64,000 nucleotides of DNA from Microbotryum violaceum (GCA_001244265.2 CDLV01000017.1:186001-250000); one strand, 5' to 3'. Shown: positions 13,570 through 55,484, numbered from the stretch's first letter. Numbers and translations are program-made. Notes: generated from the letters alone by a model not told the origin.

Positions 13570-14070
13570 AAATCCAGCACGTCAGCCCTCGGCTGCGCAG
13601 GAAGGGGGCAACGCCCAGCCGGTCCGTCGGGACCGGGCGTCTACACGTACGCGGACGTGAGGAAGCGCGAACGGTGTGAAATTCGACCCCTGAACCAGAA
13701 AACGGAGGCACTCGACGCGATGCCTGAGAGTTAACGACCTCAGAAAGGGCCACAGAGCCCGTAGGGACCGGGCATTTACACGTACGCGGACGTGAGGAAG
13801 CGCGAACGGTGGGGAATTCGACCCGGGAGCGAGAATCGAAGATTTGAATCCAGCACGTCAGCCCTCGGCTGCGGAGGACGGGGCAGCGCCCAGCAGGTCC
13901 GTCGGGACCGGGCATCTACACGTACGCGGACGTGAGAAAGCGCGAGCGGTGGGGGATCCGACCCCTGAACCAGAGAACGGAGGCACTCGACGCGATGCCT
14001 GAGAGGTAACGACCTCAGAAAGGGCCAGAGCCCGTAGGGACCGGGCATCTACGCGTACGCGGACGTGAGG
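13570..14070. repeat. Higher-order tandem repeat: ~276-bp period, four copies of a core gggaccgggcatctacacgtacgcggacgtgag
   Basis: Units start near 13571 and 13847; cores near 13629, 13764, 13904, 14037. Confidence 0.9.
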
Positions 14071-20227: not shown

Positions 20228-22053
20228 CTACAAGAACGAATTCATGAACAACGCAGCCAATGCGGTGACCAGAGCAAAGACCATCGGGGAGGTCACACCT
20301 GCCTCGCTCGCACTCGTCAAATTCTGCCCCTGTCCACTAGCTTGAGGGATAAGCGACGGTGTCGGTGCAGTCTTACTCGGTGTCACTACAGCTGTCGTAC
20401 TCAACCCTTCGGCGGCACTCGAATCAGCAGGTGAAGCCATCGTCGTCGCTGTCGTCGCTAACGACGACTCCGAGGACACGACCGCCGTGGCTGTTGCGGT
20501 CGGCGCAATGGACGAAGTGGTGGTAGTTATGTTTTGAGCTACCAACCCCGCATTCATACTGGGTGTGTTGTCCCCGATTGTGGACGAGTTCTTGCTCAAT
20601 ACGGAGGCGACGTTCTTCGCGAAAAGCTCGTGGACGGGCCAAGTGGGTCGCCAGAAGTCTTTCCAGATGCTGAAGGAGGAAAAGGGTGGTATCAAGAATG
20701 CTAAGTCAGTCGACTGTTCGCCAGGTTCACTCAAGATGACAGGACATAAGTGAAGCGACTCACTATTGGAACATGGGTACCCCGCATGCAGCGATGTCGG
20801 TCGCGTTCGGGTTAAAGACAATTGTCGAATACGCCGAGCACGACGTCGCGTTGTTCACAAAGCCGTATTTCTCCGGTGACGCGATCAAGACGTTGGTGAA
20901 CGACTCGGACGAGATGTAGTACGCCTGGATACCGGAGTACCGATCCGCAAGATTCGAGGCGTAAGCTTGGAGTCGGTCGTTCCAGTACGAGATGTCGTCT
21001 TGGAGGATCGCCTCGCCGTTCGTATACGCCGCCAGAGGCGAATGGTACAACGCCGGAATATCCATCAAAGCGACATTCTTGGCTCCCGCGGCGTACAATT
21101 GACCAACGAGTGTATCAAGCGCCGTCATAATGGCGGATTGGAACTGCTTAAAGTCTTGCCCGCTCGCGATGAGGTTGTAAAAGTCGTCGTTGCCGAACCA
21201 GATCGTGAAAAGTAAGGTCGAGGGGGACCAGGAGTATGGCGAGTTGGTCGAGTTGAAATACGTCTTCCATGCTACGACTTGATTGACGAAATCGACGGCT
21301 CCGTTCGAATAGACGATGGAATTGTCGACCGTTGCGCCTGCGCGTGAAGTCGAGACGACGTCAGTTGCTGCGAGTCGTGATATGGGCTCGGTGCCCTGTT
21401 CGGATTGACCCGGACTCACCGAGGGATGCAAAGTTGTAGTACGACGTAGAGGCGTTGGTGGAGTTCTCAGCAAAGTACTGGACCCAAGCTCGCCCACCCG
21501 AAATTGACTGTGTTTAAAGCCATTAAACGTGAATGGACGAAGGAGGAAGGAGAACTTAAGGTCAGCACACTGCTTTAATCGTAGTCTTGTCCAGGTCCAT
21601 AAGACCCGAGAGCTATGAGGGGTCGTTGAACGTTTGGATATGTGCTCAGCGTACCAACTTTGTGTCCAGAACGAGTGGCTGGGTGACGATATTGTACCCT
21701 GTAGTCGTGAGCGAATCTAGAATGATGATGTACACGGGTGGGGTGAACGTGAGTCAGTGTGATCGAATTCAATGCAGTCCGATTTCGACATCCAACATAC
21801 CCCCGAACGAGAAGCTTTGAGTTCCAACAAAAGAGAACGAAAGGAACAACCTCGGCCAAGTCAGCCGCCGGATCGCCGTGGGCTTCTCGGCGATTCGCGC
21901 CTCCTATTCTATCTCCTTTCCCACCTGCCACTGGGGTTACGCTTACATGGTATTGATGGTATCGAGGTTGAGATTCGATGTTGCTGCTCTAACCGTCAAA
22001 GGCAGTAGAAGTACAGCCGCAATCCTCGTGATCGCTCCGGCTCGAGAGAGCAT
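20228..22053 (-). CDS. Secreted GDSL/SGNH esterase (CE16-like) with Ser/Thr tail and probable GPI signal
   Basis: Signal peptide MLSRAGAITRIAAVLLLPLTVRA; spliced FSFGDSLTTTG; GATVDN, IWFGNDD, PEKYGFVN; hydrophobic C-terminus. Confidence 0.8.
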
Positions 22054-22653
22054 CCCCGTCCTTCGGTCGACTGGGCGTGTTCCTGACGGTAACGGGAGCG
22101 GGGAGTCAATCAAGCCCGCGAGCCGGTGAGGGGCACGCTGGGAGGCGCCGAGGGTGGGAGTTATAAACGAGTGTGGGTGAGTCGGAACGAAGGGAGGGAC
22201 GAGCTGGACGAGTATTGTGGACTATGAGATGAGAGACTGAAGTGACGAAGGTGATAAGATGAAGAGTCGACCAGATCGAGACGCCAATTCGTGCTCACTG
22301 CAGGGGCGGAGGTAATTAAATCCCGAGCCAGTCAACCTGGCGACCCAGAGACTTTGTCACCTTGTTACGCGCGCCAAAGCACAACTGGCCTGGCCACAGC
22401 TCTTTGGTGCGTCTCAACGGACGAGCGAGGACGAAAACCTTTCCAAAGCCGTATTTCGGCGGCTGGCGGGGGCCATGAGGCCTGCCTTGGAGCTTAGATC
22501 CCTCCCGCAGCCGCGCCGCCCGAGGCACGGGCGCCAGCTGGTGCAGGGAGTGGTGGCCGCGTCGCCTCCTCTGCGGTCGCTCTCCAGGCCACCTCGCCGC
22601 CACCACCTGATCGCTCGTCTCCCGCGCCGCGGCAATCTCGCTTGTCTTGCCAC

Positions 22654-23035
22654 CCTTCCCCAATGTCTTGACCTGTTTCGCACCGCAGGTCAAGAACGAA
22701 TTCGACAAGCATCCTCTCACCGCAGTGAAAAAATGGTTTACCGGAACCGAAAGGACCATTTGGCGCGACCACCTCGTCTCTTGGACTCATCTGGTGAGTT
22801 TTATGCTCACGAGGCGATATTCACCCCCAGGGCTCAGCAATGATGAGGTCGGCAGCTGTTCTCCGTCGGCAACATCGGCTCGTGGGCACAGATCTCAGCA
22901 GAAGAGTCCAAAGACGAGGTAGTCACGCCGAATGGTCCTTTCGATTCCGGTAAACCATTTTTTTACTGCGGTGAGGATTCTTGTCGAATTCGTTCTTGAC
23001 CTACGGTGCGAAATACGTCAAGAAGATGGGGAAGG
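22654..23035. repeat. Diverged inverted repeat (arms 22654-22798 and 22894-23035, ~95-bp loop)
   Basis: ggtcaagaacgaattcgacaag / cttgtcgaattcgttcttgacc and aaaaaatggtttaccggaa / ttccggtaaaccatttttt are reverse complements. Confidence 0.93.
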
Positions 23036-23449
23036 ACGTCCCTGTTTCAGTTGATGTCGCGGACGTTGACACGGATCACTTTTGTTTGCTCCAGCGCCAC
23101 TGCGAGAGAAGCAATCCAAAGGTCAGTGCCGTTGCAATGTCAAGAGCCCGAATGGTCGCATCTGCGTTGTCCCATCCGGCTCGACTCACCTTGAGCGTAT
23201 CGTAGAAGACATCACCGTGATTCGTAGTCCATCGTGGAGTAAACATCAACAACTTGGTCACGGGGCGCAAGTCCGTCTGTATGCCACCTCGCATCGCACC
23301 TGCTCAGCTCCGACCGGACCGGACCCAGCCCAGAACGATGTCAGAACACAATCATATCTGATTCTCTTCCGATCCTATTTACTTCTCATGCCGCTATTTC
23401 ACTCCTATTTTGCACTCCTTCTTTAGCCTATTCCCTCTACGCCGGATCC

Positions 23450-23996
23450 CAGCGCCTGATTGAGACTCGGTTGACACGTTGGCTTGCCAGTGGGTTGAAG
23501 TCGACTCGGAGCGCCTCGCGTTTTGTTTGCGGCGATTTGCTTCTGTAATTCCGCGATTTGTTTTGCCATCTCTTTTTTGGAGAGGTCTGAATTGATTTTC
23601 TTGGCCTTTTCGCTTTTTGAGGCCGATTCATGGCTGGTGGCTTCGTTTGGTCGCTGTGACCTCGCATTGGATCGGTTGGGGGTGGGTGTTTCGCCCTTTT
23701 CGTCCGCTTCCGTCATAATCAAGTCTTTATTGGGTTCTTCTTCCTCCTCTTCTTCTTCATCTTCCATCCGCAATCTTGTGCTCGTACTCAACCCCTTGAG
23801 TCGGGATCCAGTCCTCCATACTTCTGATATATCGAAACATCCCACAAATTCGTGCAAAAGTGATACTCAATGCCCAGACGTCGATGGCAATGGACCTAAT
23901 CGAGGGTGAACTCCTCCGGATAAAAATAGGACAAGGACTATTACCCCTCCGCCTTCATACCCTATGCACGGAATGTGGTTCTCACAGGAGCTCTTT

Positions 23997-24027
<31 letters not shown>

Positions 24028-24255
24028 TATTAGAAGTATGGAGGACTGGATCCCGACTCAAGGGGTTGAGTACGAGCACAAGATTGAGGATGGAAGATGG
24101 ATGAAGAAGGAAGAGACGAGCGCCCGCGAGGCGCGCGACTTCAACCCAAGCCAACGTGTCAACCGAGTTGCTCAAAGACGCTGTAAGAACCATATTCCGT
24201 GCATAGGGTATGAAGGCGGAGGGTTAATAGTTCTTGTCCCATTTTTGGGGGAGGA
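23450..24255. repeat. Compound inverted repeats (three stems)
   Basis: 23758-23829 vs 24028-24099; 23450-23520 vs 24125-24183; 23912-24001 vs 24169-24255. Confidence 0.9.
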
Positions 24256-27200
24256 CTTTGAACGATCGGCTTGACTGCGCCGCCACCTGAGCTTGGCTGT
24301 TCCTTCGCTCGACATACTACCCGAGCCGGCATCTTCTCCAGCCGACCTTGCGAACATGCCGGTCATGAAGGCTCCGAGGACGATGCACAATGGGTCGTCG
24401 ATCATAGCTGAGTGGCGCAAGGCCTGCCGCGGGGACAATATCAATGTCAGCGATAAAGGGCCGCAATGGAGTGCACGTGTGAGCGTGTTTGAGACGGGGC
24501 ATTGGAGGGTGGATGGCAGAGGAGAAAAAAAAAAGAGGGGGGGGGGGACAGGACTCACCGTCGAGACTAACACGAAGTTATTGGTCATCGGCAGGCCACG
24601 GACCGCAAGGTCGCCTCGAACGTCTTCTCCTTCGTTATCGTCGCGTTCGTAGCGGACACGCGGGCGCTTGGGCGCTTGAGATGAAGGTGACTCCTGTTGA
24701 ACCGCCCGGACGAGGTCAGCCCCGCGTCGTGGTCACTACGATGTTGTGCGAGGCCAGTTGCAAAGCTACGTCTCTCACGAACTCGTCATCCCGGTCCGGG
24801 CTGTTTGAGCGCGAAGAACGTTGCGAGTCGGAAGGGGGTTAAAGCGAACGCTCAGAGCGCTCATCGCGGTCGGCCGCGGGAGACTGGCTATCAATGGCGG
24901 TAAAGTCGAAAGGCGTCTGGAAGAGGCGGCGGAAGGGATGAAGACGCGAGGCGTCCCAGTATCACGCGCGATTGAGCCACCGATCCGGCCACGAGAACGT
25001 ACCCTGGGGCGCTTTTGACCACGAGACTTGCCAACGGCGCCGATTGAGGTGGACTGAGGCTGTTGCGCCTGCATGCCTTCTTTCTCCTCTTCGTCTTCTT
25101 GTTGGTGTCGTTGAGGTTGATGTTGCTCTTAAGCGTGCTCTGTCTGACGTTGCGCAGCCACGATCGCCTCCAAGGAAACGTTCATCCCGGCACCTTGAAG
25201 CAAACGAAAGATCCCCTGGGCACGGTGTTGAGATTGCTGCGACTCGGCGTCAGGTCGAGACCGACGCAGAGGTCGACGGAGTAGATTTGGCACGACCACT
25301 ACTCGTAGCTGAGCCGGAAGCGGAAGCCTTCTTCCCGGGCCCCTGTGGATAGTCGATCAGGTCAGCTGACGCCGTCGCGAGGCAGGCCGGCCAGGGTGCC
25401 GTCGCGTGGAATCTGATGGAAAGGCGGGTTGGCGATGCAGGCAGAGCGGTGGTGGTGGCGGGAGCGACCGAGGAAGACACTCGTAACAAGAGTAGAATTG
25501 GCTGACATAAATTTCAGTACTGTGGCGATGTTTTTACTCTCTGAGGTGGTTGTGGTTGTGGTGTGAGCGACGAGATGGGGTTCGGAAGCAGAAAGGACGC
25601 GACGCGCGCGCGTGCAGGAAAATTTGGAAAAGGACTCGATGCTAAAACAAATGGGGCAATGCAACTAATACTTTCAAGACAAGCTGTGCCTTCACCTAAT
25701 ACTGGTACATGGGAACATAGGGGAAGGGGAGGGGGGCACTACAAGTAACAAATCTCGACCATAACAGGGCCTCAACAAGTTGAAGCGAGCAAGGCGAAAC
25801 GGCTAATCATCACCACCTCCTCTCCTTCCGAGACCGAACTTGGGGCCAATCGATTGGTTCTCGGGTTGGACCAGGACGCTTCATCATCATCGTCGTCGTC
25901 GTCGTCATGACTAGACTCGCCAACTGAAACGCGCGCTCGCTAGATTGCTGCTGCACGTGTCCGAGAGGGTGATGGTGAGCGGTTCCGCGTAATCGATCGG
26001 GAGACTGCGAAGAGCAGACCAGAGAAGGAAGGGGTGGGTACTCACGGAGAAGAAGGGGGATTGAGTCATAGTATCCTGGTCGCCGATACCAAAGAACTCG
26101 GATAGTTTTGGTTGCTGATCAAGACATGGCAGCCAGTGTCGTCAGCGCCAGAGGAAAACCCGTCGACGACTCGTTCGCGATCTGAACGGACAGGAAAGCT
26201 TCCCAGCGATTCGTCCTCGGGAACGGCGGGCGAGGTCGTCTGCAATAAAGAAAAACGCGGTACACGTCCATCAGCTGGTGTGATATGTAAGCTTGGCCCA
26301 ATTGACATTAATACGCACCCTCGCTTTGCCGGCTCTTCCGCGCCGCAGTTGTGCTCCTTCGTTGCCGGTCGACGCCTTCCAGCAGCTGGCCTCGATCCAT
26401 CCTGGCCATGTTGTTTTGGTTGTCGTTGATGAACTCGTCGGTTTCTTGTGCTAGGATTGGTATAGGCGCGAAGAGATCGACGTTGTCGTACGATAGATGA
26501 TGAATGGTGCTGAGGAAAAAGTTCTTGTGTTGTTCGTGCCCACGCCACGCGCGAAGCGGCCGGTGTAGTGTCCATCTGCGAAGATCGGTGCAAGATTACT
26601 GCAAGATCACGCCATGCACTACCGCATGCACCTGCACTAAGCGAGCGGGATCGACTCGAGCGGGAATTGGGTTGCATTTCACGGCGCATGCATTGATGCG
26701 CCGTCGCTAGGCAAGTAGCTCTTCAGGCAAGTAGCTCTTCAACGGGACAGGTAACTACTAGTAGGTGGCTGATTGGCTGTTTCTTCACAAATCTTCCCGT
26801 ACCAATCGCCTTCACGGGGCTTACCTGAGCATACGATTGCGAATGTGCATCGCTTTATCAGTTGTCCAAACCTTGATCCGCGCGGGCACCACAGAATAGC
26901 ATCGAAGATTATGTCATACACAGGGAAAGAGGATTAGTCAGCTTCCCGGGTAGAAACACGACGAGATTGAGACAGTGACGAATCCAGGAGATAGCTGCAG
27001 CAACCTCAAGAGGTTGGATGGGGGGGTGTTCAGAATATTAAAGACTTGTCTTCATCTCGCGACATGCGCCATTATTCATGACAGAAGCGCCGCGAAGGTC
27101 CGAAATCTCGAGTAGAAATTTTATTTAAGTCCATGACATGTGTTCATCATGTGGAAGCGGCGGACGTGTGGGCGGGTGGATGGCTCGACGATCCTTCCGC

Positions 27201-29653
27201 AGCTTTGAGCGCTCGCTGGGAGATGGCGGTGTGTGCGATAGCGTATCTCGTAGTGCGGATGCAGCGAGATCGGAGTGTTGGATCAGGAGGCTCACCTTAT
27301 GTGGTCAGGTCGTTTTGTGTGGGATGGTACATCGCTGAGAAATGCGGTGCGAAGTCGAACCAGGCGTCTCACAACGCGTTGGCGGTGCAGAAGCTACCTC
27401 AGCATGTTACGAATGCTTGGCGACCACGATAACCGGCATACTGCTTAGTGTTGTCGGTTACTTGCAGCTGCTGGCGGCGGAGAAGCATCAGTTCTTGCAG
27501 GTTGAAGACGGAGACGAAAAAGATCCACGGCCAGACCCGTGATCAGTTTGGCTGCGAGCTGCTTTTGCCGGCGGCGAGTTGTGAGCTACAGCCAACGGTC
27601 GTAAGCCGCCCCCCTGTCGAGGTGGATTCCCCCACTTTCGTCAACGGAGCCAACGGAGCTAACGGAGCCCACAAGTTCCGACAAATTGATGGGAACTCGG
27701 CGGAGGTTCAAACTACACATTCAAACTAGCTAAAAATACTTGTGGGCGGCCTATAAAAAAAAGGTGGCTACCGCGTGACTGGGTCACTTGAAATTCGGAT
27801 TGGGTCCATTTCCTCGCATCTCGCTCGCATCTCGCTCGCATCTCGCATCTCGCGGGCCGTTCTTGTTGTCATCGTCGAATTGCATCTAGGAACATGAACC
27901 GGGGGCAATATAGTGGTTTCGACAACAAATCAAAAAGGTGGTCTCCCCATCTCTCTCTCCGGCTCTCTCAATAAGGCAGTGGTTTAGCACACCCCGCCGG
28001 TATTTCTCTGCGGGAACAGAGGTCGCGGATCCGAAGTGATCGGTACGATAACAACGACAGCAAAGTTTTTCTGGGGGCGAACTCGTGTGGGTCAGAAGCT
28101 CTGGGCGAGAGCCCTGCTGCCCCGAGACCGCGATGTGACCCGCTTAGCTATAGGTAGGTACCTCCCAATTTCCATCTTCACTTCACTCGACATCACTTCA
28201 TTTTGTTAGATGTGGGGTCTGAGAGCCTAACTCATTGCTATTAGTCTTGGTTATTCTTCATTCTGCGCGCGCGCCTATCTTTGTCTTGGCGTCCTTTTTC
28301 CTTCTGGGTTCCTTCTCCACGCTATTCTCATCATCTCACTCGTGTATCTCGGAGCTGAGTCGTGGAGTACCTCTAAGCCCTTGTTGTAAAACATTTGAAA
28401 AGCGCCCTACCGCAGCCTTCCAGAATCGAGTAGACAAGTCATACACAGACAAGATGTCTATGGGAGACCTCGAATCCTGTTAGAGTCAGAATTTATCTCG
28501 GTTATTAAATTAAGTCTGGGCCTGTAGCCACACAGGCCACCAAAAGGGAGCAGTAATTAAGATGTAAATTCATTACGAACTGAGCCCTTTAGCTGTTGTA
28601 GGCCCCTGACTATGATAGATCCCCACTGTCTCGCTACCTCAAACACGTTTACAGACCTTTCAGTTTTCGGGGAATACGCAAAGGATGCGCCTTCACTCGT
28701 CATACTGCTGTATTCTGTGCCCTCTCTTCAAATCGTAACATCGTGATCGCGCGACTGATCGTGTCGCCTCGGCGCTTACTAGTCGTCATTCTTCTGCGCG
28801 GCTGTTTGCTCTTGGTAGCTTCCTCATGACTCGCTTTACATGGTCGATTTGACCAATCCTCTCTCTTATCGAAAGATCAGGCACTCTACTGGTATGATCA
28901 CTCGCGCTACATTGCGGTGGCTCTAACGTCTCTCTCTCCTATCGTTTCCCTATCGTTTAGTGATCTTGGCTCCTAGGCGTCGCTACTTCTCTCCTATATC
29001 GGCAGACTACCTTTCGCGCTCGGACCGTTTCTAAGTGCCAAATCCGAATCCGAATCATAAACCTCGAACTTTGCGCCGTTTTTCGGCACTCCCGGGTGGC
29101 TAGACACGCGAGTGAGTATTATCTACTGTCACAAAAGAGAGAGGGAAGAAGGACACGAGTCGATGCGTCGGTGGTGAAAATATGACCCGGGCGACCCGGG
29201 CGACCCGGGCGATTGATGACCAGTTGATCATCCCCCGCGCGCTCGCACCTCAGCCGAGGCGGACTAAGTCGACCCACCGGCAGGGGCACGACAAGTAACG
29301 GGTCGTTCGTGCTCAGAGTAGTACGAGCAGGTTCGGGGTGGTTTGCTTGTCACCCTGCAAGACTTTGTTGGCCACATAGTCGGCAGCTATAGGCGCTCGT
29401 GCGGCTGCCGGTCAAGGCGGGCTCGGGAAACGAGGTCTCCTTTCGACAGACGGGAGCAGCAGCAGCAGAGAACCTCGGCTGCCGAGCCGCAGCGGCAAGT
29501 GGCTGGTACCTAGTGGACCCGAGCGTCGCACCACTGTTGTCCTCTCCTCCCCCTTTCATCAGTGAATCATCACCTCCCGCCCGCCACCCACGTACACCGT
29601 TGCACACCCTCGAACCAAGTCTCACCTCGACGTCATCATCCCCCCCCTTTTCC

Positions 29654-30614
29654 ATGAGCATGCCCTCCACTTCCTCGGTCGACCAGCACCGTGCCCCCCG
29701 AGCTCGCGCCGCCTTGTACGACGTTGCGATGCGTCGCAGCATCGAGCTCCCGGACGAGGCTCTCGGCAACATCCTCGACCTCGTGGAATCGACCGAGTCC
29801 TCTCCCCACCCCGGGAAGAACGACCAAGTATTTTACGTTCAGTCGTGGCGGTTGAAGATTGAGGAGCTCGCTCGCGTCGTTGGCGCCTTGGGCCTCGCCA
29901 TTTCCCCGGCTTGGTCCAAGCTCGTCGACCAAGAAGATTCTCCAAGTAAGTTTTCATTCGTTATGCGGGCATGACGCGAGGGAACAACCCCCATCTTCGA
30001 TTGTTGAAGGACAACAAGAAGAGAACAACGTCGATGCTGGGGGCATTCTTGATGGCTTTGCGCGTCGAAGTACCTGACGCCTACAACAACGCGGCGAAAG
30101 CGTTCAAGGTACGTCGTTGGGTATTCGGATCAGCGTTGGCGTCCGTTGTCCCAGGTTGACTGACGGGGGACTCACAAATCTTGGATCTTCGTGCAGGTTC
30201 GCAACGCTCGACTGGCCGAGTCGGCAACTCGCGACGAACGCGATCTCGGCGAACGTGTGCTCGTCTCTTTCTTTGGTCGGGAGCAATTGCTCCACGTCCA
30301 GTGGGGTGGACACTATGGCCAGTACGATCCCGAGTCGCAGGTATTCGAATTCAACGAGACCCACCACTCGGGTTACTTTGCTTTGTTCGAGACGCACGTT
30401 GGAGGATGTGGTGGGGCGGGTGCTTGCCCTCTGCGACCCGCTTCGCCTCGCCTGCTGCCACCATCCCGAGACAAAGTAGCTCTTTCCCTGTCCCACCACA
30501 CTGGCCCATTCTTTCCACTCGTCACAGGTCGACCTCTAGTTGCCAAACTTGAGGACGTATTCGGTATCCCGAGCTTCCAGAGGCGAAGAACCTGGCCTTG
30601 GCGGGCGGGAGAAT
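29654..30614 (+). pseudogene. F-box-like hypothetical gene cut at its 3' end by the Copia LTR (left-arm copy)
   Basis: ELPDEALGNILDLV motif; likely introns (gtaagt ~29946; gtacgt ~30109 to cag ~30196); ORF runs into LTR start TGTTGT. Confidence 0.5.
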
Positions 30615-33259
<2,645 letters not shown>

Positions 33260-33295
33260 CTCTCCACCACCTGAACCAAACCCTGCCTCCCTTAT

Positions 33296-33972
33296 CTACT
33301 TCTTCTCTTCTTCATCCTCCTCTTCTTTCTCAGATCCTCCCAGCCATTCATTCTCAAACGCCTCGTCCAATTCCGAGTCACTTGAGTCGGAACCCCACGG
33401 TTGACGGTATGCCTGGTCGCCCATGAAGTTGAGTTGATCCGGGTGGTCCCCAATTGTCCCACCTGTCGTCTTTGGGCACTCGCGAATACTATGCCCCATT
33501 TCCCGGCAGTTGAAGCAGCGACCCTCATCAATGCACTGTTGTCGGGCCTCAGCTGTCAATGGTGTGCGCCTTGCCATGTTTGATTTGAGATCCCGTGGCG
33601 AGCGAGTGATACGGGAGTTGGTGACGGACACTTGACCTTTCCACTCGAGTCCCAGCAAGGAAGCGACCGCCGTCATGTGTCCAATGAGCGAGTTCACTGT
33701 GAATGTTGAGAGTGTAAAGCCGGCAGTTGAGGTGGTACGCGCATACAGTAGGTCGTTGGCGTGATGTAGCAAGTGTTGTTTGAATTGGTCGTCATTGATG
33801 AACTTTCCCCCGTCCTTGCCAATACCCAAGGTTGCGCGCCGACTCGCTAGCTTCGCAGCGTACGTAGTGAAAGAATCCGACCCTTGTTGCGTACGGTAGA
33901 AGTCGTGCTCGGCGGTGAGCACAAAGCCCGAGTCCAGGAACCGTTCCCTCACCTCAGCCGCAAAGGCATCCC
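33296..33972 (-). CDS. Ty3/Gypsy-type gag (capsid-like part plus CCHC knuckle), 5' part lost at the fold-back junction
   Basis: WDAFAAEVRERFL..QQGSDSFTTYAAKL; RCFNCREMGHSIRECP; acidic tail; stop ~25 bp before the PPT. Confidence 0.8.
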
Positions 33973-34298
33973 AATCAAACATGGCAAGGCGCACACCATT
34001 GACAGCTGAGGCCCGACAACAGTGCATTGATGAGGGTCGCTGCTTCAACTGCCGGGAAATGGGGCATAGTATTCGCGAGTGCCCAAAGACGACAGGTGGG
34101 ACAATTGGGGACCACCCGGATCAACTCAACTTCATGGGCGACCAGGCATACCGTCAACCGTGGGGTTCCGACTCAAGTGACTCGGAATTGGACGAGGCGT
34201 TTGAGAATGAATGGCTGGGAGGATCTGAGAAAGAAGAGGAGGATGAAGAAGAGAAGAAGTAGATAAGGGAGGCAGGGTTTGGTTCAGGTGGTGGAGAG

Positions 34299-36944
<2,646 letters not shown>

Positions 36945-37909
36945 ATTCTCCCGCCCGCCAAGGCCAGGTTCTTCGCCTCTGGAAGCTCGGGGATACCGAA
37001 TACGTCCTCAAGTTTGGCAACTAGAGGTCGACCTGTGACGAGTGGAAAGAATGGGCCAGTGTGGTGGGACAGGGAAAGAGCTACTTTGTCTCGGGGATGG
37101 TGGCAGCAGGCGAGGCGAAGCGGGTCGCAGAGGGCAAGCACCCGCCCCACCACATCCTCCAACGTGCGTCTCGAACAAAGCAAAGTAACCCGAGTGGTGG
37201 GTCTCGTTGAATTCGAATACCTGCGACTCGGGATCGTACTGGCCATAGTGTCCACCCCACTGGACGTGGAGCAATTGCTCCCGACCAAAGAAAGAGACGA
37301 GCACACGTTCGCCGAGATCGCGTTCGTCGCGAGTTGCCGACTCGGCCAGTCGAGCGTTGCGAACCTGCACGAAGATCCAAGATTTGTGAGTCCCCCGTCA
37401 GTCAACCTGGGACAACGGACGCCAACGCTGATCCGAATACCCAACGACGTACCTTGAACGCTTTCGCCGCGTTGTTGTAGGCGTCAGGTACTTCGACGCG
37501 CAAAGCCATCAAGAATGCCCCCAGCATCGACGTTGTTCTCTTCTTGTTGTCCTTCAACAATCGAAGATGGGGGTTGTTCCCTCGCGTCATGCCCGCATAA
37601 CGAATGAAAACTTACTTGGAGAATCTTCTTGGTCGACGAGCTTGGACCAAGCCGGGGAAATGGCGAGGCCCAAGGCGCCAACGACGCGAGCGAGCTCCTC
37701 AATCTTCAACCGCCACGACTGAACGTAAAATACTTGGTCGTTCTTCCCGGGGTGGGGAGAGGACTCGGTCGATTCCACGAGGTCGAGGATGTTGCCGAGA
37801 GCCTCGTCCGGGAGCTCGATGCTGCGACGCATCGCAACGTCGTACAAGGCGGCGCGAGCTCGGGGTGGGCACGGTGCTGGTCGACCGAGGAAGTGGAGGG
37901 CATGCTCAT
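36945..37909 (-). pseudogene. Mirror copy of F-box-like gene, frameshifted relative to the left copy
   Basis: Same sequence with extra bases in G/C runs. Confidence 0.5.
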
Positions 37910-40002
37910 GGAAAAGGGGGGGGGATGATGACGTCGAGGTGAGACTTGGTTCGAGGGTGTGCAACGGTGTACGTGGGTGGCGGGCGGGAGGTGATGATTC
38001 ACTGATGAAAGGGGGAGGAGAGGACAACAGTGGTGCGACGCTCGGGGTCCACTAGGTACCAGCCACTTGCCGCTGCGGCTCGGCAGCCGAGGTTCTCTGC
38101 TGCTGCTGCTCCCGTCTGTCGAAAGGAGACCTCGTTTCCCGAGCCCGCCTTGACCGGCAGCCGCACGAGCGCCTATAGCTGCCGACTATGTGGCCAACAA
38201 AGTCTTGCAGGGTGACAAGCAAACCACCCCGAACCTGCTCGTACTACTCTGAGCACGAACGACCCGTTACTTGTCGTGCCCCTGCCGGTGGGTCGACTTA
38301 GTCCGCCTCGGCTGAGGTGCGAGCGCGCGGGGGGATGATCAACTGGTCATCAATCGCCCGGGTCGCCCGGGTCGCCCGGGTCATATTTTCACCACCGACG
38401 CATCGACTCGTGTCCTTCTTCCCTCTCTCTTTTGTGACAGTAGATAATACTCACTCGCGTGTCTAGCCACCCGGGAGTGCCGAAAAACGGCGCAAAGTTC
38501 GAGGTTTATGATTCGGATTCGGATTTGGCACTTAGAAACGGTCCGAGCGCGAAAGGTAGTCTGCCGATATAGGAGAGAAGTAGCGACGCCTAGGAGCCAA
38601 GATCACTAAACGATAGGGAAACGATAGGAGAGAGAGACGTTAGAGCCACCGCAATGTAGCGCGAGTGATCATACCAGTAGAGTGCCTGATCTTTCGATAA
38701 GAGAGAGGATTGGTCAAATCGACCATGTAAAGCGAGTCATGAGGAAGCTACCAAGAGCAAACAGCCGCGCAGAAGAATGACGACTAGTAAGCGCCGAGGC
38801 GACACGATCAGTCGCGCGATCACGATGTTACGATTTGAAGAGAGGGCACAGAATACAGCAGTATGACGAGTGAAGGCGCATCCTTTGCGTATTCCCCGAA
38901 AACTGAAAGGTCTGTAAACGTGTTTGAGGTAGCGAGACAGTGGGGATCTATCATAGTCAGGGGCCTACAACAGCTAAAGGGCTCAGTTCGTAATGAATTT
39001 ACATCTTAATTACTGCTCCCTTTTGGTGGCCTGTGTGGCTACAGGCCCAGACTTAATTTAATAACCGAGATAAATTCTGACTCTAACAGGATTCGAGGTC
39101 TCCCATAGACATCTTGTCTGTGTATGACTTGTCTACTCGATTCTGGAAGGCTGCGGTAGGGCGCTTTTCAAATGTTTTACAACAAGGGCTTAGAGGTACT
39201 CCACGACTCAGCTCCGAGATACACGAGTGAGATGATGAGAATAGCGTGGAGAAGGAACCCAGAAGGAAAAAGGACGCCAAGACAAAGATAGGCGCGCGCG
39301 CAGAATGAAGAATAACCAAGACTAATAGCAATGAGTTAGGCTCTCAGACCCCACATCTAACAAAATGAAGTGATGTCGAGTGAAGTGAAGATGGAAATTG
39401 GGAGGTACCTACCTATAGCTAAGCGGGTCACATCGCGGTCTCGGGGCAGCAGGGCTCTCGCCCAGAGCTTCTGACCCACACGAGTTCGCCCCCAGAAAAA
39501 CTTTGCTGTCGTTGTTATCGTACCGATCACTTCGGATCCGCGACCTCTGTTCCCGCAGAGAAATACCGGCGGGGTGTGCTAAACCACTGCCTTATTGAGA
39601 GAGCCGGAGAGAGAGATGGGGAGACCACCTTTTTGATTTGTTGTCGAAACCACTATATTGCCCCCGGTTCATGTTCCTAGATGCAATTCGACGATGACAA
39701 CAAGAACGGCCCGCGAGATGCGAGATGCGAGCGAGATGCGAGCGAGATGCGAGGAAATGGACCCAATCCGAATTTCAAGTGACCCAGTCACGCGGTAGCC
39801 ACCTTTTTTTTATAGGCCGCCCACAAGTATTTTTAGCTAGTTTGAATGTGTAGTTTGAACCTCCGCCGAGTTCCCATCAATTTGTCGGAACTTATGACTC
39901 TCAACTCGCATCAACGTCTCAGCGGCCCACGACCCTCACTCGCCTTGAAGACCGGACTCTCGGTCGTTTGCATCCCCCCCCATTGCACGTTCACACAGCC
40001 AG

Positions 40003-41736
40003 GATGACAGGGCCAAACAAGAAAGTACTTGTCCTAGGTCAGTTACACAAGCCCTCACTCAGGTGCTGTAAAAGACCAGCTCCGCTAACAGCGCCCTACC
40101 CTCTCCTCCCGCCGTAACTGTCACCTGACCTCGGCCGTTCCACTCGGGCGCTCGGGTTCGCACGTCGGTGTACGCTGCGACTCGCTCCCACTCGTTCTCA
40201 CCCGCCATCCGTTCTGGAACAAGGTTCTGGTAACTTTGGATCGTACGTGGCTTCCCTGTCTCTACTGGGTCCAACAGTTTCGCTCCCATCACCGTTCGAG
40301 GACTATCCTCGGTCGTCGTCATCGACTCGGGATACCACACCAATCCCACTTCCCAGTCTTGGTCTCGATTTGTGCATCCCACTCCGGTGATAGCAGATTG
40401 TTTTCTCGTTTCTGATTCTCACGCTCCCCTCGCAGTTGTCTCGCCGACCACCTCGGTGACATCGAGCACAAGGTCTTCATCCACTGTCGCTCACAAGCGA
40501 CGATCGACTCGCTCAACACTCATCGCAAGAACCCAAAGTACCTCACCGACCACGAGTTCTCCGCGAACCTGACCGCGATCGGGCCCGAGCCACCCACGAC
40601 CGAGTTCTTGCAGGAATGTGACGTAATCGTCTTTGCGATCCCTACACAATCCATGAGGTTCGTGCCCCTACCGTGCCGAAACGAGTCAAGCAAGAAGAAT
40701 TTTGCTCACAATGATCTTTCCTTTGATGCAGATCCGTCCTCAAACCTCTCAAGCTCGAATCGATCAAAAACCTGCCTCTCCTCGTGTTCGTCAACAAAGG
40801 CATCGAGATCGGGACCAACAAGTTGCCTCTTGAAGTGATCGAGGAAACGTGCGGGCCCGAAGTCGCTCGCGTGTCGACATTCCTGGTCAGTAATCCGTAT
40901 AATGTCGAGCGATTTTGATCATACGCAGATAGCTCGTGCTGAAGACTGATGCGTTGTCGTTCAGAGTGGCCCCTCGTTCGCAAAAGAGATTGTCAAGCGA
41001 CAACCGACCCAAGTCTCGGTTGCCGCGCTTTCGGAGGAGCATGCGACCCGGACCGCTGAGCTGTTCCATCAACCCTGGTTCCGATGCTAGTACGTCGTCA
41101 GAGACTCTCGATTCAATCCGCTACTTTCCCTGGAGCATCCTCCTACTGATCACGATTATCCCTTGCTTCCCTTTTCGCAGCGTCAACCCAGACCCAATCG
41201 GGATCGAACTCGCCGGAGCCCTAAAGAACGTCTACGCCATCGCTTCGGGCGTCGCGTCTGGCCTAGGCTACGAATCCAACACCCGAGCCGGACTCGTCAC
41301 TCGAGGTTTAGCCGAAATGACCCGGATCGGAGTAGCGTACGGTGCGGACCCTTTGACGTTCCTCTCCCTCGCCGGAGTAGGCGATCTTTTCCTCACTTGT
41401 TCGTCGACCAAATCGCGTAACTTCACCGTTGGGGAGAGGTTGGGTAAAGGTGAAAATCTTGATCATATCATCGAGACGTTGGGTTCGGTCGCCGAAGGTG
41501 TCGATACCGCCAAATCGGCTTATGCGATGGTCAAGGAGAAGGGTATCGATGCGCCGATCTTGGAACATGTTTATCGGTGCTTATGGGAGGGGGAAACGGC
41601 GGGTGAGATGGCGAAAAGGCTGATGTCGTTGCGGATGATGAGCGAGATGGAAGGTATCCACGAAACGGGTAGTGCCGCAGCTAGCCCAAAGGGATCTCCC
41701 AAGAGCTCGGCAAGTGGGCTCAAGTTGGCTCCTTGA
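40003..41736 (+). CDS. NAD(P)-dependent glycerol-3-phosphate dehydrogenase (GpsA-like type), multi-exon
   Basis: Spliced KVLVLG/SGNFGS/CLADHL; NKGIE; SGPSFA; GIELAGALKNVYAIA; LAGVGDLFLTCSSTKSRN. Confidence 0.92.
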
Positions 41737-43801: not shown

Positions 43802-46800
43802 TCATGCGAATTGAAACGGTGGGCTCAACCAACTTTCCCAACTCGACTCGTCGGCCGGGTTGGCCGTGATCCTCACGGCTCTGTAAAGAAGGGAAATACA
43901 CAATTTGATTTTAATGAGGTTAAAATGGAAACTAATTCGTCGTTGTTAAGGAGGACTGACCGAAGAAGCAGGCGGTAAGCAGTCTGTGCCGCGGCGGTGA
44001 CGAAGCGGCCGGAGGTGGCCGAGGTCTGGTAGCGCCCCGTGAAAGTGATCTGTTGATCACCGAAGGGAAACTTGCCACCACTTGTGACAGCTGGATCCCT
44101 AGGGATGTTGATACCACCCTGGACGAAGCCGAGTGTCGAAATCGAGGCATACTTCGTGTTCTCTTTTCGCGAGAAGAGGTGCGCGCCGGTCAAACCTTCG
44201 GCATCGAGGGAATCGAGGCCAAACTCTTCATCGGACCGACGTGTGAGTACGCCAGCATTGTTGGCGGTAGAGATCGTCCCCTTGAAGGTTGTGTTGGCGG
44301 CCATGAGGTCAATGGTATACGCTTGAGTCGCCTCTGTCAGATGAAAATGAGGACAGAGAAGTTGTTAGTCATGACGCTTGGAGGCAGGGCTGCACGGAGC
44401 AAGACACTTACGCGATAGACGGAAAACAAGAGTGACACCATCCTTCATAAAGTAGGTCGCAACACTGCTCGGGCTTGTCTGGACCACGCCCTCGGAGTTG
44501 ATGAGGAAGGGGTACTTGAGCCCCGGTTGGTACTGCCCCGCGAACTTTTCCGTCTGGTCGAGGATCTGCATGTCGCGCATGTTACCCGCCAAACCAAAGT
44601 AAGGGATTTGGAAGGATTCCTTGTTGTCGGCGGTGATCATGATAAAACCGCTGTAAACGGGGAAGAGCGCGCGTTGACCGGCAGAGAACTGTGGCGGCTG
44701 GAACTTGATCTGGAACGTCGACGTCTTGCCGGCCTGGATCGTGACGCGACCGGGGCGGAACGTCACCGACGCACCCCTCGACAAGGTACCAGGGCTCAGC
44801 GAGGGGTTGTACTGTCCCTTCTTGTCGTACACCAGACGAGGTTGAGCACCCGTATCGGAGTAGCGGTACGTCATCGCTTTCGAGTTCTTGTTCGTAATCG
44901 TTACCGTCTGCGTGGCGGCGAAGTGAGCCGTGTCGTTGAGGTACAACTCGTTGGGGCTAAAGTACGACTTGGCCGTCATGGCCTTGTTGACCTGGATCAA
45001 GCCAGCACCTTGGAGGACCGTTGAGGTTAAGGGAGCCTTGGTGTTGCGACTGACGGGGATCGACTTGGCCGTCGAGGAAAGGAGCTGGCGCATCTCGACA
45101 GGGGTGAACTTGTCCTTCCTGCGAGCGGCCAAGATCAACGCAATAGAGCCCGCAGCGTAGGGCGTGGCCATTGAGGTACCACTGATGACACCGACACCGC
45201 CCATGGCAAGAGGGAAGGTCGAGAGCACATTGCCACCGGGAGCCCCAAAGCTAGGCTGACCGTACATATCGTTTGTAGGGCCAAATTGACTGAAGTCGCT
45301 GACCTGACCGCCGGAAAGCGTCTGCTGGATGCGCAGCTGCTTGCTGTTGCTCGGGAACGCGACCTTGGGTCCCTCCTTCTTCTGAGCGAGGTAGTACTTG
45401 CGCACTTTTGCGGCATCGGCACCACTCATGCCGGCGATACCGACCACAGTCGTACCTTCGGCGAGATCACTGACGGAGAAGTAGGGTCGTCGTTCTTGGC
45501 CTGGCGCTCCGTAGAGCACGATGTAGCGCGCGCCCTTGGCGCCGGCGTTGAAAACCTTGAGAGCGAGTTGGCAGGTTCCTCGCCTGATGAATACGATGCG
45601 ATTCTTGAGGTCGGGTGTTGATTTAGGCAACTTGTTGCAAGCGTCATCGGTGACCTGGAGCTCGGTAGAGGTAAAGTAGACCGCGAGGCCCTTGTCGAGT
45701 CCAAGCGGCTTAGCGCTGTAAGCGGTCAACGGCGTGTGCCCGCCCGTCTTGAAGACCATACTATATGCCGGGATGTAGGTCACATCGACCGATGCGATGC
45801 TCATGGCCGTCCGCGTGCCCGCAGGTTGAGAAGCAAAAAACATCCCCTCGATCTGTTCGTTACCCGCGGCCGCAACGACATGGATCCCTTTGGCGATGAG
45901 CTTGTTGAGCACGTACTCTTGGGCCCCCGAGTTGGACCAGCTGTTGGGTGCGCCGAGACTCATGCTGATGATATCGGGCTTATCTTGGGGAGCACGCAGC
46001 AGGGCCTCGACGATGATATCGTCGGTGGTGGAGCTCGCGCAGCCAAACACACGGTACATACCCAGCGTGGCCTTTGGTGCAACGCCCGTGAAGCCATACT
46101 TGTTGGAGTTGGCCCCGATAGTCCCCATGACTGTTGGTGTGTAGATAGATCGTCAGCATTAGCGCGTGTGATAGGGATCCAGAAGTGTTGCTCAGAAACT
46201 CGTGACCCCACCAAAACAAGCGGCCGACTTACCATGCGTGCCGTGTTCAGTGCAGTTGGTGTATGGGTTGGGCTCGTTGACCGGTGTGCCGCTATCGTCG
46301 ATGAAAGAGTAGCCAAAGCCGACTTTGCAGCCTTTGCCAAAGCAACCGCCGAGAATCGGGTTCTTGTAGTCCACCCCCGTGTCAAGGACGAGGACCCTGG
46401 CGCCGGCGCCGAGGTAGCCCTTGGCATGGAGCCTGTCGACGCCGGTCATCTGATGCGGTGGGAACTTGTCATTTTTTAAGTCATTCGCTGCGCGTGGCTC
46501 GAGGAGATCCCGTCGAACAAGCTGACTTGACGAGGTTTCGACGTTGCTCAATGAGGTATGACCGAGGCTGTGCGGGTTCGGGATACTATGAACCGGCCAG
46601 GCATGCTAGTAACAGCCAAGACTCCTTGCTATCAGCCCACAGACGTTAAAGTCTCTATCTTCGAACAAGCTGTCTTCAACTCACTGTAACACCCGGGATC
46701 GCCAGTAGGTCTTCGGCCGTTGTGTTGTCGGGCACGACAATGCTCGCTCCGGTGAGCAGGCCAGGGGAGTGGAAAACTTTTTTGGTCTTGACATTGATAC

Positions 46801-47259: not shown

Positions 47260-48125
47260 AATGTTTATGGTGTGAAAATGCGAAGAGAAAGAAGTAGACC
47301 GAGCCAGTCGTGAGCGGAGGCGTCAAAATCTTGCAACAATAACACTCCGGTGGAATGTATACCATTTATAAAGGTGAGTCGTCTAGGCCCAAGATACAGT
47401 CTCACCAAAAGAAAACCACCTGGTCATAAAGCATAATTTGGGGAGCAAAGTCGCTCGTTCAAAGGAAGTCTGGAAGCAACATGTTTCAATTGGCCAGCGC
47501 GCCTCGGTACCCCGAGCCCTCCGACATGCCTCCTCCTGAACCTCGAAGCGCTCGGAGAGTTGTCAATGACGGAGCCGGGCGTGACGCGTGATAAATTCAG
47601 TTTATGTTTTGCCGGATAAAATAATGAAACAAGAGGCGGAATTCCTATTTTATGACTCTGTTCCCTTTTTATAAAATAAAGAAGTAAAAAGATAAAAAGA
47701 CCAAAAAAAAAGTAAATCAAAAAACGTGTGCAAAAAAAACCCTTCAGTAATTTTAATGAGAGGGAGATCTTAAAAAAATGAAATGAAAGAAAATGCTTGT
47801 GGTGTGACAAGGCGATGAGAAAGAAGTAGACCGAGCCAGTCGAGAGTCGGAGGTGTCAAAATCCTGCAACAATAACACTCCGGTGGAATGTATACCATTT
47901 ACAAAGGTGAGTCGCCTAGGCCCAAGATACAGTCTCACCATAAGAAAACCACCTGGTCATAAAGCATAATTTGGGGAGCAAAGTCGCTTGCTCAAAGAAA
48001 GTCTGGAAGCAACATGTTTCAATTGGCCAGCGCACCTTGGCACCCCGAGCCCCGAGCCCTCCGACCTGCCTCCCCCTAAACCTCGGAGAGTTGTCAATGA
48101 CGCAGACGCGCGCCGCGACGCGTCA
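47260..48125. repeat. Diverged direct duplication (~330 bp: 47260-47590 and 47792-48125) with an AT-rich spacer, upstream of the S8 gene
   Basis: Shared gagaaagaagtagaccgagccagtcg...ctcggagagttgtcaatgacg. Confidence 0.93.
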
Positions 48126-52841: not shown

Positions 52842-55484
52842 TTAAGCCAGGAGCCAAGCGCCCAAACCGACGATCAAACCTTGCAACGAGAGCGTCGCAA
52901 GCGTCTTCTTGGGAGCCGACGACCTGGTGTTCGTACTGGTGGTCATGCTGCCCTTGTTTTTTGACATGTCCATCCCGGGCATGGAGGATGAACCATTCGC
53001 GGGACCGACGGATTCAACGAGCGAAAGGCTGCTCCCGACTTGTCCGACCGCTCCCACGAGGGTGTGTGGGTTTGGGTTGGTTCCCGGGCGCGCGCTGGCA
53101 TTGGGACTGGGTCCCGAACCTGCACCAGAGTTAGTGAGCGTAAATTTCCCACTGCTCGCGGGGAGGACCGTGTCCTTCGCAACGGGCTGCTGGCCCAACT
53201 TTCCATTGCCGACCATCACGAGACGGCCGATGCTCGGCACTTCGTTGACGACGACAAAGAACAATGCAGGACCAGGTTGGAACAAGTTGGGGTTGGGAGG
53301 TAGCTGAGCTACATTTACCGTGACTGAGTTGTCGTCTTGAACGGTGTAGGTGCTGCGCAACTCGATGCTCCTCATTCCCATATTCATCGCGTGCGTCGAG
53401 AATCCCGTACGAATGAGCACGACTCGAATGCTATCCGGGCCCGCAGCATCGGTGAAGGTCGATGCGGCGAGACTGAATTGGAAGAGTTCACCTCCATAGG
53501 AAAAGCTGGACGGCATCACACTCGCTTCGGGTCGGAGCATGTCGTACCACGATGGGTAGAAAATCTCGCCTCGGTACTCGGTCTTGAATGGGACGGTCGG
53601 GTTGTTTTCCTCCGTCGTGACATCAGCATTGGGATTACTACCTGCGATGAAGACCGCACCGTCTGCAAGAAGTGTTGCGGACGAGTGGTACATACGAGGG
53701 ATTGTGGACAGCGGCAGCCCTTCGGTCGTGATGCGGGAACCTTTGGGGGCGAACGGGTTGTACATGACCGGTTGAAGAACAGGATCCTGGGCAAAAGATT
53801 GCCCGATCGCCCAGGGCAAGTTCCCGTATCCAGACGAGCCTCGACCCACGCCGTTGAAGAGCAGCAGCTGGCCCGTGGGCATGGTGATGAAATTGCCCAT
53901 GCCGCGGGGCTGGGGGAGGTCGTCGTCCTCAACCCACTTTGCACCATCCTTGGGAGTAATGGACACGCAAGAGTTGGATGTGGGGGTGTCGGCGATATCC
54001 CATTGTGTGACGTCCCAATCGTCTCGCTTGGGGTTCATGCCGCCGCACATCAGGATCGTCACGGTGTAGTTGTTCGCCGGCGTCATGGGCAGCACCGCCG
54101 TCGCTCCCGAAGCAGGGTACGTCCTCTGTGCGGCCGGAACGTTCTCCAAAGCCACTTCTTCGTCCGTCTCAAGGTTGAGAATCTGGGCCTTCCAATCCGC
54201 TTGCATGAACACTCGGCCATCCGGGAGGAGATATGTCAGTGGGTACAGGTTGGCGGGTCCGCTGTTGGCGAGGAAGGACGAAAACTTGAGTGAGCCACGA
54301 GAGGGCCAGAATTCGCTGCGGTCCCAGGGTCTTGGGGGTCAGCTTGACAACCGAGATTATGCGACCTTGGGGTGTAAATACTGACTATGACGAAGCGTTC
54401 TGCTTCTCCTTTTTCGCGTCAACAAAGCCACCCCATAACTCGCCTGTAGGAACATCAAACTCATCAAGTCAAGTCAGGCAGAGGCTCAAATAACAATACT
54501 CACAGTCAGAGGCAACTCACCACCAAAGATCGCCGCCGTTCCATTCCCCAAGATTTCAACAGAGGGATACCAACGATTGATAGGCATACCATATTCATCC
54601 TCGATCCATTCATCCGTTCCATCATCAGTGGGCTTGAGGAGTCTGACCGATCTCCCTCCCGCTTCTTCATGGTACGAGCCCTCTTTTGTGCCCGTCGATT
54701 TACCCTTCTTGTCAACGGCTTGTGTACCACCGACGCTGATCCAGGTCCCATCACCGAGAACACCTCCGCCGGCGCAGAAGGTGTTGGTATGGACTTTCAT
54801 GGGTCGGTAGGTGTTGTTCTCGAGGTTGTATTCGGTCGCCCACTGGTGAATTCCATCCTCAATTCAGCAATAGTGGCAGCGCCGTTCGGAAAGAGATACT
54901 TACGGCTGCACGCCCTAGAATTCGCGCCGCTATGCCCGAGATATAGGAGAGGAGGTACCCCGTCAGCGTTGACTTGTTCAGGATGGGACTCCCAAATAGC
55001 GTGCGAAGGACCGACTATTATTCTCGGTCTTGTCGATAACGTAAAGCTGCCAAGGTCAAGATTACATCAGAGTGTACTGCGAGCACGGTGACCAGTGACA
55101 TATACAACTGACTCGTCTTTCGGTCTATGATATATGCCGAGCAAGTCAGCTCTACAGTCTGGATGGACACACCCGTCTCCGCACCGATCGCGATCGCTAA
55201 CTCACCCCCAAGAACAGTTGCTGAGCGCTGACTCTGTAGGACGAATAGAACGCAACTCTTTAGTAACATCCTCAAAAACACTCTCACTAAGCCCCTCTTC
55301 AAACTGACCCCGTTTCACCAACAATCTCGAACGTATTCGCCTTCCCCGTTCCACGGCCGGACGATGCGGCGGCAACGACATGCATCGATGACGAACTGGC
55401 CTGGAAAGGGGTGAGCACGCCAACGAGCGTCACGACCGCTCCTAGGCCGATCGAGGCCTTCCATGCGACGAAGGGTTGTAGCAT
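52842..55484 (-). CDS. Copper radical oxidase / glyoxal oxidase (AA5_1-like), copy 1
   Basis: Signal peptide, TNTFCAGG, RWYP, NLYP, RMYHSSA, GSNPN, GFSTHA; hydrophobic C-terminus. Confidence 0.93.

Follow-up and report, generated by a model that had tools for sequence, protein, structure and literature searches.

The DNA analysed is a 64-kb stretch of the anther-smut fungus Microbotryum violaceum (GCA_001244265.2, CDLV01000017.1:186001-250000; referred to as the window, with all coordinates counted from its first letter). It contains a palindrome of two 5.9-kb arms around a 387-nt spacer, in which the orphan gene MVLG_07231, the 5' half of a Copia retrotransposon and a gag piece of a second retroelement are duplicated in inverted orientation. 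The palindrome is very probably real, its exact centre being somewhat less sure, and it is read here as a young inverted duplication of the fold-back or template-switch type, i.e. a by-product of repair with a predicted side capacity for double-stranded RNA (dsRNA); we give this reading a probability of about 0.6. A first-pass annotation of the same DNA had proposed a hairpin-RNA silencing locus of the kind of maize Mu killer.

Geometry of the palindrome

An inverted-repeat search of the window gave seven collinear pieces, 99-100% complementary, at 27670-33585 and 33973-39896, with the innermost arms 387 nt apart. When the arms were compared with each other, blastn returned a single match of 5,924 columns at 99.85% identity, and a MAFFT alignment of 27673-33585 with 39893-33973 contained no substitution and seven indel events amounting to 8 nt; six of these are a single C or G within homopolymer runs and one is a CA, and the left arm is short in all seven. 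For a perfect inverted repeat of 5.9 kb, chance is no issue.

The flanks outside 27672 and 39894 are unrelated to each other, and a comparison of 27672/27673 with 39893/39894 shows neither a target-site duplication nor a terminal inverted repeat. The geometry given in the first-pass annotation (two inverted arms of about 5.9 kb and a 387-bp spacer) is thus confirmed to the base by repeat search, blastn and MAFFT, and its differing flanks without a target-site duplication are confirmed by alignment and by the sequence at both outer ends. A transposon with long terminal inverted repeats (a foldback element) and two insertions of a composite element were considered and rejected; there is no target-site duplication, there are no defined termini, and only about two copies are present.

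Evidence for two copies in short-read contigs

A search with 9.9 kb of left flank, arm and spacer listed 20 public runs from seven studies, with at least half of the sampled words found in 14 of the 20. Logan contigs of four runs (X1, X3, X12 and X15; four studies) were aligned to 25500-34300. The outer 2.9 kb of each arm, 27673-30614 on the left, is designated unit U. Depth was scaled on one flank contig per run, a contig depth not being a copy number, and on this scale the single-contig depth of U relative to the flank was 2.0-fold in X1 (111.7 vs 55.4), 1.5- to 1.8-fold in X3 (350-404 vs 226.5) and 1.5- to 1.6-fold in X12 (31.6-34.2 vs 21.3). Half depth over the arms had been named in the first-pass annotation as the mark of an artefact; the arm depth found is neither equal to that of the flank nor half of it, and the flank contigs enter the arm.

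In X1, X3 and X12 the flank contig stops at 27702, 29 nt past the first base of the arm, and in X3 and X12 arm contigs start at 27673. Where two predecessors meet in one node of a k=31 graph, an overlap of 30 nt such as this one (27673-27702) is expected, so the outer end of the arm is joined to two different sequences in the genomes of X1, X3 and X12. At the inner end of U, the contig reaches 30643 in X1 and X3, 29 nt inside the Copia long terminal repeat (LTR), with no branch at 30614; one and the same Copia insertion is therefore common to all copies of U in these runs, as it should be if the duplication of U came later than the insertion. The contig that carries MVLG_07231 in an independent, older assembly of the reference strain measures only 2,958 nt, which is the size of U.

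All covering runs insert missing letters at 29231, 29517, 29639, 29695, 30464, 30567 and 30674. The short-read contigs show the right-arm version at all seven places where the arms differ, and the left-arm indels are therefore consensus errors and the true arms identical. Both arms also lack one G at 28072 (and at the mirror place) relative to the contigs of all covering runs, a further consensus error in repeat DNA.

Contents of the arms

No transposon makes up the outer 2.9 kb of either arm. Unit U comprises MVLG_07231 and about 2 kb of upstream DNA, and its depth in the short-read contigs is only about twice that of the flank. The exons of the right gene copy (37832-37617, about 37581-37447, and 37358-37011) agree with the database protein at every residue, and the gene points inward and looks intact in both arms. 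In the assembly, exon 3 of the left copy is one nucleotide short at 30464; a C is inserted behind 30464 in X1, X3, X12 and X15, the deletion is a consensus error, and the frameshift of the left copy is therefore false. No Pfam family, and no gag domain, was found in MVLG_07231 or in six relatives. A protein search gave only five relatives at E <= 0.001 among 1.84 billion representatives, and a structure search of the Atlas with MVLG_07231 gave no usable match, its own model having a predicted local distance difference test (pLDDT) value of 0.35. Neither MVLG_07231 nor the right-hand flanking gene MVLG_06802 is named in any paper of the literature searched.

Within U lies a high-copy scrap of about 0.15 kb that resembles an LTR. 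In the left arm it is delimited by contig breaks at 28222/28241 and 28345 and has a bin depth of 4,766 versus 55 (X1); a loose contig end at 28386 continues like the end of an LTR, followed by the start of a gag. An assignment of the outer arm to 'the second element's LTR and gag' was rejected, as MVLG_07231 has no gag domain and about two-copy depth, and only the LTR-like scrap is found there. A CTCGCAT-type microsatellite at 27813-27850 varies between runs (11 nt omitted in X12 and X15; 7 nt added in X1). The 'nested transposon 5' halves' of the first-pass annotation thus hold for the inner half of each arm only, the outer 2.9 kb being the MVLG_07231 unit.

The inner half begins with the Copia LTR, which sits about 62 nt behind the stop codon of MVLG_07231, and the insertion is probably in the 3' untranslated region of this gene. 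The LTR contains a 97-nt internal tandem duplication (30766-30864); exactly these 97 nt are omitted in the X15 contig, so the family has LTR variants with and without the tandem duplication. The two Copia LTRs facing each other in the first-pass annotation were recovered, both of them complete. Pfam domains of the internal part are Retrotran_gag_2, Pol_BBD, gag_pre-integrs, rve and SH3_retrovirus; no RVT_2 domain was found by Pfam in the arm Copia. The element is cut at 33108, before the reverse transcriptase (RT), and the contigs of other copies diverge after 33108, while the open reading frame (ORF; 30994-33240) extends 132 nt past this break. Relative to an intact Ty1/Copia element, the LTR and the gag-protease-integrase (gag-PR-IN) part are present, and RT, RNase H and the 3' LTR are absent. 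A search with the protein of this ORF gave 22 proteins at E <= 0.001 among 8,000 scored candidates, including 14 from M. silenes-dioicae (73-98% identity) and one from M. intermedium; full copies of 1,046-1,305 aa carry PF07727 (RT and RNase H). The contig depth of the Copia family in X1 is 32-42 times that of the flank.

Next to the cut Copia lies the gag piece of the second retroelement, likewise an LTR element, with a contig depth of 416 versus 55 for the flank (X1). The ORF at 33296-34048 (minus strand) matches zf-CCHC at E 1e-5, and its match to Retrotrans_gag is below threshold (E 0.006). As this gag ORF runs continuously from the spacer into the left arm, the two are collinear, and 33972/33973 is the sole new central joint. 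In the stem, where the first-pass annotation had placed an LTR and gag of the second element, the antisense gag piece of 477 nt is indeed present and the LTR is not. The coordinates of all features are given in Table 1.

Table 1. Features of the palindrome and of its flanks in the window.
Feature	Position	Strand	Remarks
SGNH/GDSL hydrolase MVLG_03384, exon	20763-21716	-	left flank; 191/191 identical
Left arm	27673-33585	+	5,913 nt as assembled
High-copy LTR-like scrap, about 0.15 kb	left ~28212-28386; right ~39180-39354		mirror copies; placed from contig breaks and depth
MVLG_07231, left copy	29729-30552	+	three exons; coordinates transferred from right copy
Left Copia 5' LTR	30615-30989	+	375 nt, TG...CA; edges from loose contig ends at 30614/30615 and 30989/30990
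Left Copia, internal part	30990-33108	+	gag, protease-like barrel, integrase (Pfam)
Second retroelement, gag piece, zinc-knuckle end	33109-33585	-	477 nt, antisense to Copia, without LTR
Spacer	33586-33972	-	387 nt; upstream continuation of the second retroelement's gag ORF
Right arm	33973-39893	-	5,921 nt; reverse complement of left arm
Second retroelement, gag piece, mirror copy	33973-34449	+	mirror of 33109-33585
Right Copia 5' half	34450-36944	-	internal part 34450-36568, LTR 36569-36944, TG...CA; mirrors left
MVLG_07231, right copy	37008-37832	-	233-aa hypothetical protein
Glycerol-3-phosphate dehydrogenase MVLG_06802	40416-41736	+	right flank; 99% identical

Age of the palindrome and comparison with a second lineage

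In the spacer and in that part of the arm which holds Copia and the gag of the second element, the window was compared with the family majority, and 24 of 54 differences were listed. Among these 24, the window has T or A where the majority has C or G in 18 cases, 17 of which are at CpG and 12 in a TCG context. The differences of this copy from the family majority span 31705-33888 and are mainly C-to-T at CpG. For transposons of M. lychnidis-dioicae, a CpG/TCG mutation signature resembling repeat-induced point mutation (RIP) is reported in the excerpt of PMC4469406, and the CpG changes of the window fit it. As no substitution separates the arms, each difference located in one arm recurs in the other. 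After the point at which the arms became identical, neither has gained a substitution, which means either a very recent event or homogenised arms.

Run X12 carries a second organism label. Its U contig continues for 794 nt beyond 30614 into sequence that is absent from the window (0 matches within the window for the sequence following U, at up to 3 mismatches), and so the X12 lineage has no Copia at that site. Because X12 has the same branch at 27673 but no Copia, the outer boundary looks older than the inner content. Against the window, X12 shows 3 differences in 2,203 places of the flank (25500-27702) and 17 in 2,279 places of U (28345-30614); this roughly five-fold higher divergence of U could come from faster change of duplicated DNA or from a different history. 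As regards gene conversion, for which contigs alone were compared, the two U copies of X12 are inseparable and the arms of the window are identical.

Probable origin by fold-back or template switch

The palindrome is most likely a repair by-product in a transposon-damaged intergenic region. It consists of two inverted copies and a spacer that is collinear with the left arm, and from this anatomy we infer a fold-back or template-switch origin. Human inverted duplications with a single-copy spacer and short inverted microhomology are described in the excerpt of PMC3907307; these fold-back duplications are alike in having inverted copies, a short stretch collinear with one of them, and the new joint at the far end of that stretch. 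Their spacers are of 766-70,466 bp, and the 387 nt found here are below this range. The present structure further differs from that class, as represented in the excerpt, in being interstitial and small (5.9 kb) with both ancestral flanks kept, and in needing a second joint or annealing on the right.

The event would have begun with a break or a collapsed fork inside the gag of the second element at 33972; from there the free 3' end may have jumped to the complementary strand, 387 nt back, and used it to copy 5.9 kb in the reverse direction. Rejoining on the right would have used a second switch, or annealing to an older right-hand copy of U, and the fold-back loop would persist as the single-copy spacer. 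A single two-switch replication event in the lineage of the window is the simpler scenario. In a scenario that would also fit X12, an older inverted pair of U pre-existed, and Copia and the second element then inserted in the left inner part of this pair; after a break in the gag of the second element, the broken end would have folded back and reverse-copied Copia and U, and the new strand would have annealed to the old right-hand U, so that the old right joint was kept and the old centre discarded. Through the duplication MVLG_07231 is present twice, and two Copia LTRs face inward with no terminator LTR in between.

Several points weigh against this origin. A single simple event does not explain the branch at 27673 in X12, and microhomology at the central joint amounts to 1-2 nt at most (33973-33974), with an offset inverted match of 8/10 beside it. 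With a single flank contig per run as the scale, the depth ratio falls short of 2 in X3 and X12. The central joint at 33972/33973 is without independent support; this is a lack of proof and not a disproof, since contigs drop minority paths. The contigs shown reaching 33973 in X1, X3 and X12 continue into the sequence of other copies, and the contigs shown in these runs differ from the window at 33657, 33777 and 33888; X15 leaves 33657 and 33777 uncovered and has the other letter at 33888. The right outer joint (39893/39894) lies outside the stretch that was compared with the contigs.

A 30-mer across the central joint had 0 matches in metagenome contigs, and the sequence that follows the spacer in other copies of the second element had 0 matches within the window at up to 3 mismatches. 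The bin 34026-34300 has no cover in X1 and X3, which is uninformative because contigs fitting both arms were placed on the left arm.

Predicted capacity for double-stranded RNA

With two inward-facing Copia LTRs and no terminator LTR between them, the locus could make a long hairpin or convergent dsRNA, a capacity that is predicted from its layout. An RNA started in an LTR and reading through would form a perfect stem of up to 2,971 nt, and folding of a 987-nt test piece that encloses the spacer gave -785 kcal/mol (z = -49), in agreement with the foldable stem of about 3 kb put forward in the first-pass annotation. The further suggestion that several element families are targeted at once is weakened; the stem would cover one Copia family and 0.48 kb of a second gag, and a reading from further out would add a host-like gene. 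In X15, guessed to be an RNA run, the depth of U is 3-5, and a contig at 29811-30201 retains both introns of MVLG_07231; the run thus behaves like DNA and carries no information on expression.

Dicer and Argonaute, on which the proposed silencing would depend, are reported for the species: the excerpt of PMC4469406 gives one Dicer, two Argonautes and one RNA-dependent RNA polymerase (RdRP) for M. lychnidis-dioicae, all expressed, the RNA interference (RNAi) genes being MVLG_01202, MVLG_06823, MVLG_06899 and MVLG_02137.

Alternative explanations

An assembly artefact, whole or partial, i.e. a fold-back chimeric read, a repeat mis-join or a mis-assembled centre, is unlikely. Fold-back chimeras are a known artefact of long reads, and to the unsupported central joint are added the seven consensus errors in the 5.9-kb left arm, compared with none in 2.2 kb of flank and in the matching places of the right arm, which suggest weak read support or an unpolished repeat. 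A fold-back chimera would, however, run on into the left flank in inverted form, whereas here another unique flank follows; the neighbour on the right is the ancestral one and is oriented as expected, and in M. silenes-dioicae the ortholog of MVLG_07231 adjoins the glycerol-3-phosphate dehydrogenase (GPD) gene. The elevated arm depth in three studies, the branch exactly at the outer end of the arm, the Copia junction carried by all copies and the separate 2,958-nt contig for U in another assembly likewise speak against an artefact. We consider it quite unlikely, too, that the palindrome is an older, maintained, gene-bearing one, in which an inverted pair of U predates the split of two Microbotryum lineages, gene conversion or repair of the centre keeps the arms identical, and two gene copies are possibly useful. 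The recurrence of the 27673 branch and of a 1.5- to 1.6-fold depth in X12, whose contigs carry differences of their own, speaks for such a history, together with the missing Copia in X12 and hence an outer boundary that seems older than the inner content, the excess of differences in U over those in the flank, and the intactness of both MVLG_07231 copies once assembly errors are discounted. Yet only one ortholog accession is on record in M. silenes-dioicae, the arms are indistinguishable in every run, the gene is an orphan with few relatives and a poor structure model, the locus appears to be autosomal, and recency explains the identity equally well. Palindromes of sex chromosomes, as far as the excerpts of PMC3723533 and PMC8600007 describe them, are alike in their near-identical arms, short spacer and one gene per arm, and possibly in an outer boundary common to two lineages; the present one differs in being of kilobase scale, apparently autosomal and half transposon debris, and gene conversion is only conjectural here. 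No paper on Microbotryum palindromes was found in the literature search.

Endogenous long-hairpin loci (hairpin RNA or inverted-repeat small interfering RNA [siRNA] loci) exist in flies and plants, and their transcripts become Dicer substrates; those loci are defined by small-RNA data, the present one by sequence alone. In the Mu killer-like silencer of the first-pass annotation, read-through started in an LTR or in MVLG_07231 would give a hairpin of about 3 kb, and Dicer-made siRNAs would silence the abundant Copia family in trans, which we hold to be rather improbable. The same applies to its wider form, a natural, LTR-driven long-hairpin locus in an RNAi-competent basidiomycete, composed of tail-to-tail truncated Copia copies without terminators as the fungal counterpart of Mu killer, which in our judgement has little chance of being right. 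The anatomy of Mu killer in maize, in the excerpt of PMC3440606, is similar: an inverted duplication of the 5' part of a transposon including a promoter-bearing terminal repeat, with a hairpin of several kb made by read-through. Correspondingly, part of an autonomous transposon including its LTR (5' LTR and gag-PR-IN) is found inverted in both arms here; the LTRs are complete and face inward, Copia is cut before its 3' LTR, the stem is perfect, the excerpt of PMC4469406 gives Dicer, two Argonautes and RdRP as present and expressed, and the family to be targeted is large, judged by its depth in X1 and by the 14 M. silenes-dioicae proteins. Unlike Mu killer as given in that excerpt, the element is an LTR retrotransposon and not MuDR and resides in a fungus, its own LTRs could serve as promoters, the arms also hold a host-like gene and a piece of another element, and the locus is known from the anatomy of its DNA only. 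Half of each arm is not transposon, the Copia family is abundant with many copies that have long ORFs, so that any silencing would be recent or incomplete, and any transcribed inverted repeat would give siRNAs in an RNAi-competent cell without a selected function. A 2022 re-analysis of fungal hairpin small RNAs (PMC9757828, in excerpt) states that natural long hairpins still need demonstration, and the literature search found neither a fungal Mu killer-like locus nor a small-RNA study of Microbotryum. By its anatomy as assembled the structure belongs with the fold-back-type inverted duplications, and it is not filed as a member of the Mu killer class.

Flanking genes and related species

The protein match of MVLG_06802 is that of M. 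lychnidis-dioicae p1A1 Lamole, and the window is assigned, on such matches, to M. lychnidis-dioicae or to a strain nearly identical with it. The orthologs of the flanking genes in the outgroup species M. intermedium, BQ2448_5963 (SGNH) and BQ2448_5962 (GPD), have consecutive numbers on one 1.45-Mb contig; since the flanking genes are direct neighbours there, the whole of 21.7-40.4 kb of the window is specific to the lineage. Contig 035 of M. silenes-dioicae carries BQ5605_C035g11451 (GPD), g11452 (the MVLG_07231 ortholog), four further models and g11457 (SGNH); g11452 is 96% identical to MVLG_07231, and there is only one accession for the protein of U. Two SGNH genes are present in M. silenes-dioicae, on contig 039 (P0152) and contig 035 (P0157), each 99% identical to the exon in the window; this pair is either a segmental duplication or a result of redundant contigs. 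The GPD ortholog of M. saponariae is tagged Chr8, which suggests an autosome for the locus.

A search with Rfam over 21000-41000 gave 0 matches. Besides the palindrome, self-comparison of the window gave two short direct repeats only (47260-47589 / 47792-48123, 88%; 13562-13797 / 13838-14070, 91%). Further to the right lie a subtilase with PA and Fn3-like domains (44365-46128) and two adjoining glyoxal/galactose-oxidase-like paralogs (52842-54206 and 56185-57441, minus strand), each with a GO-like_E_set domain.

Significance

If the hairpin reading were true, no natural transposon killer locus acting in trans would have been described in a fungus before this one, and it would offer a direct handle on the recognition of an active LTR family by RNAi; the most abundant Copia family of the genome would be held down in trans, and the duplicated orphan gene MVLG_07231 would be exposed to self-silencing. 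An identical, linked duplication of 5.9 kb also limits how efficiently, or how recently, a RIP-like process acts on duplicates in this genome. If, as the favoured fold-back reading has it, the palindrome is a repair scar only, it would be a clean and datable example of how palindromes and gene duplicates arise from transposon-damaged intergenic DNA in a selfing plant pathogen.

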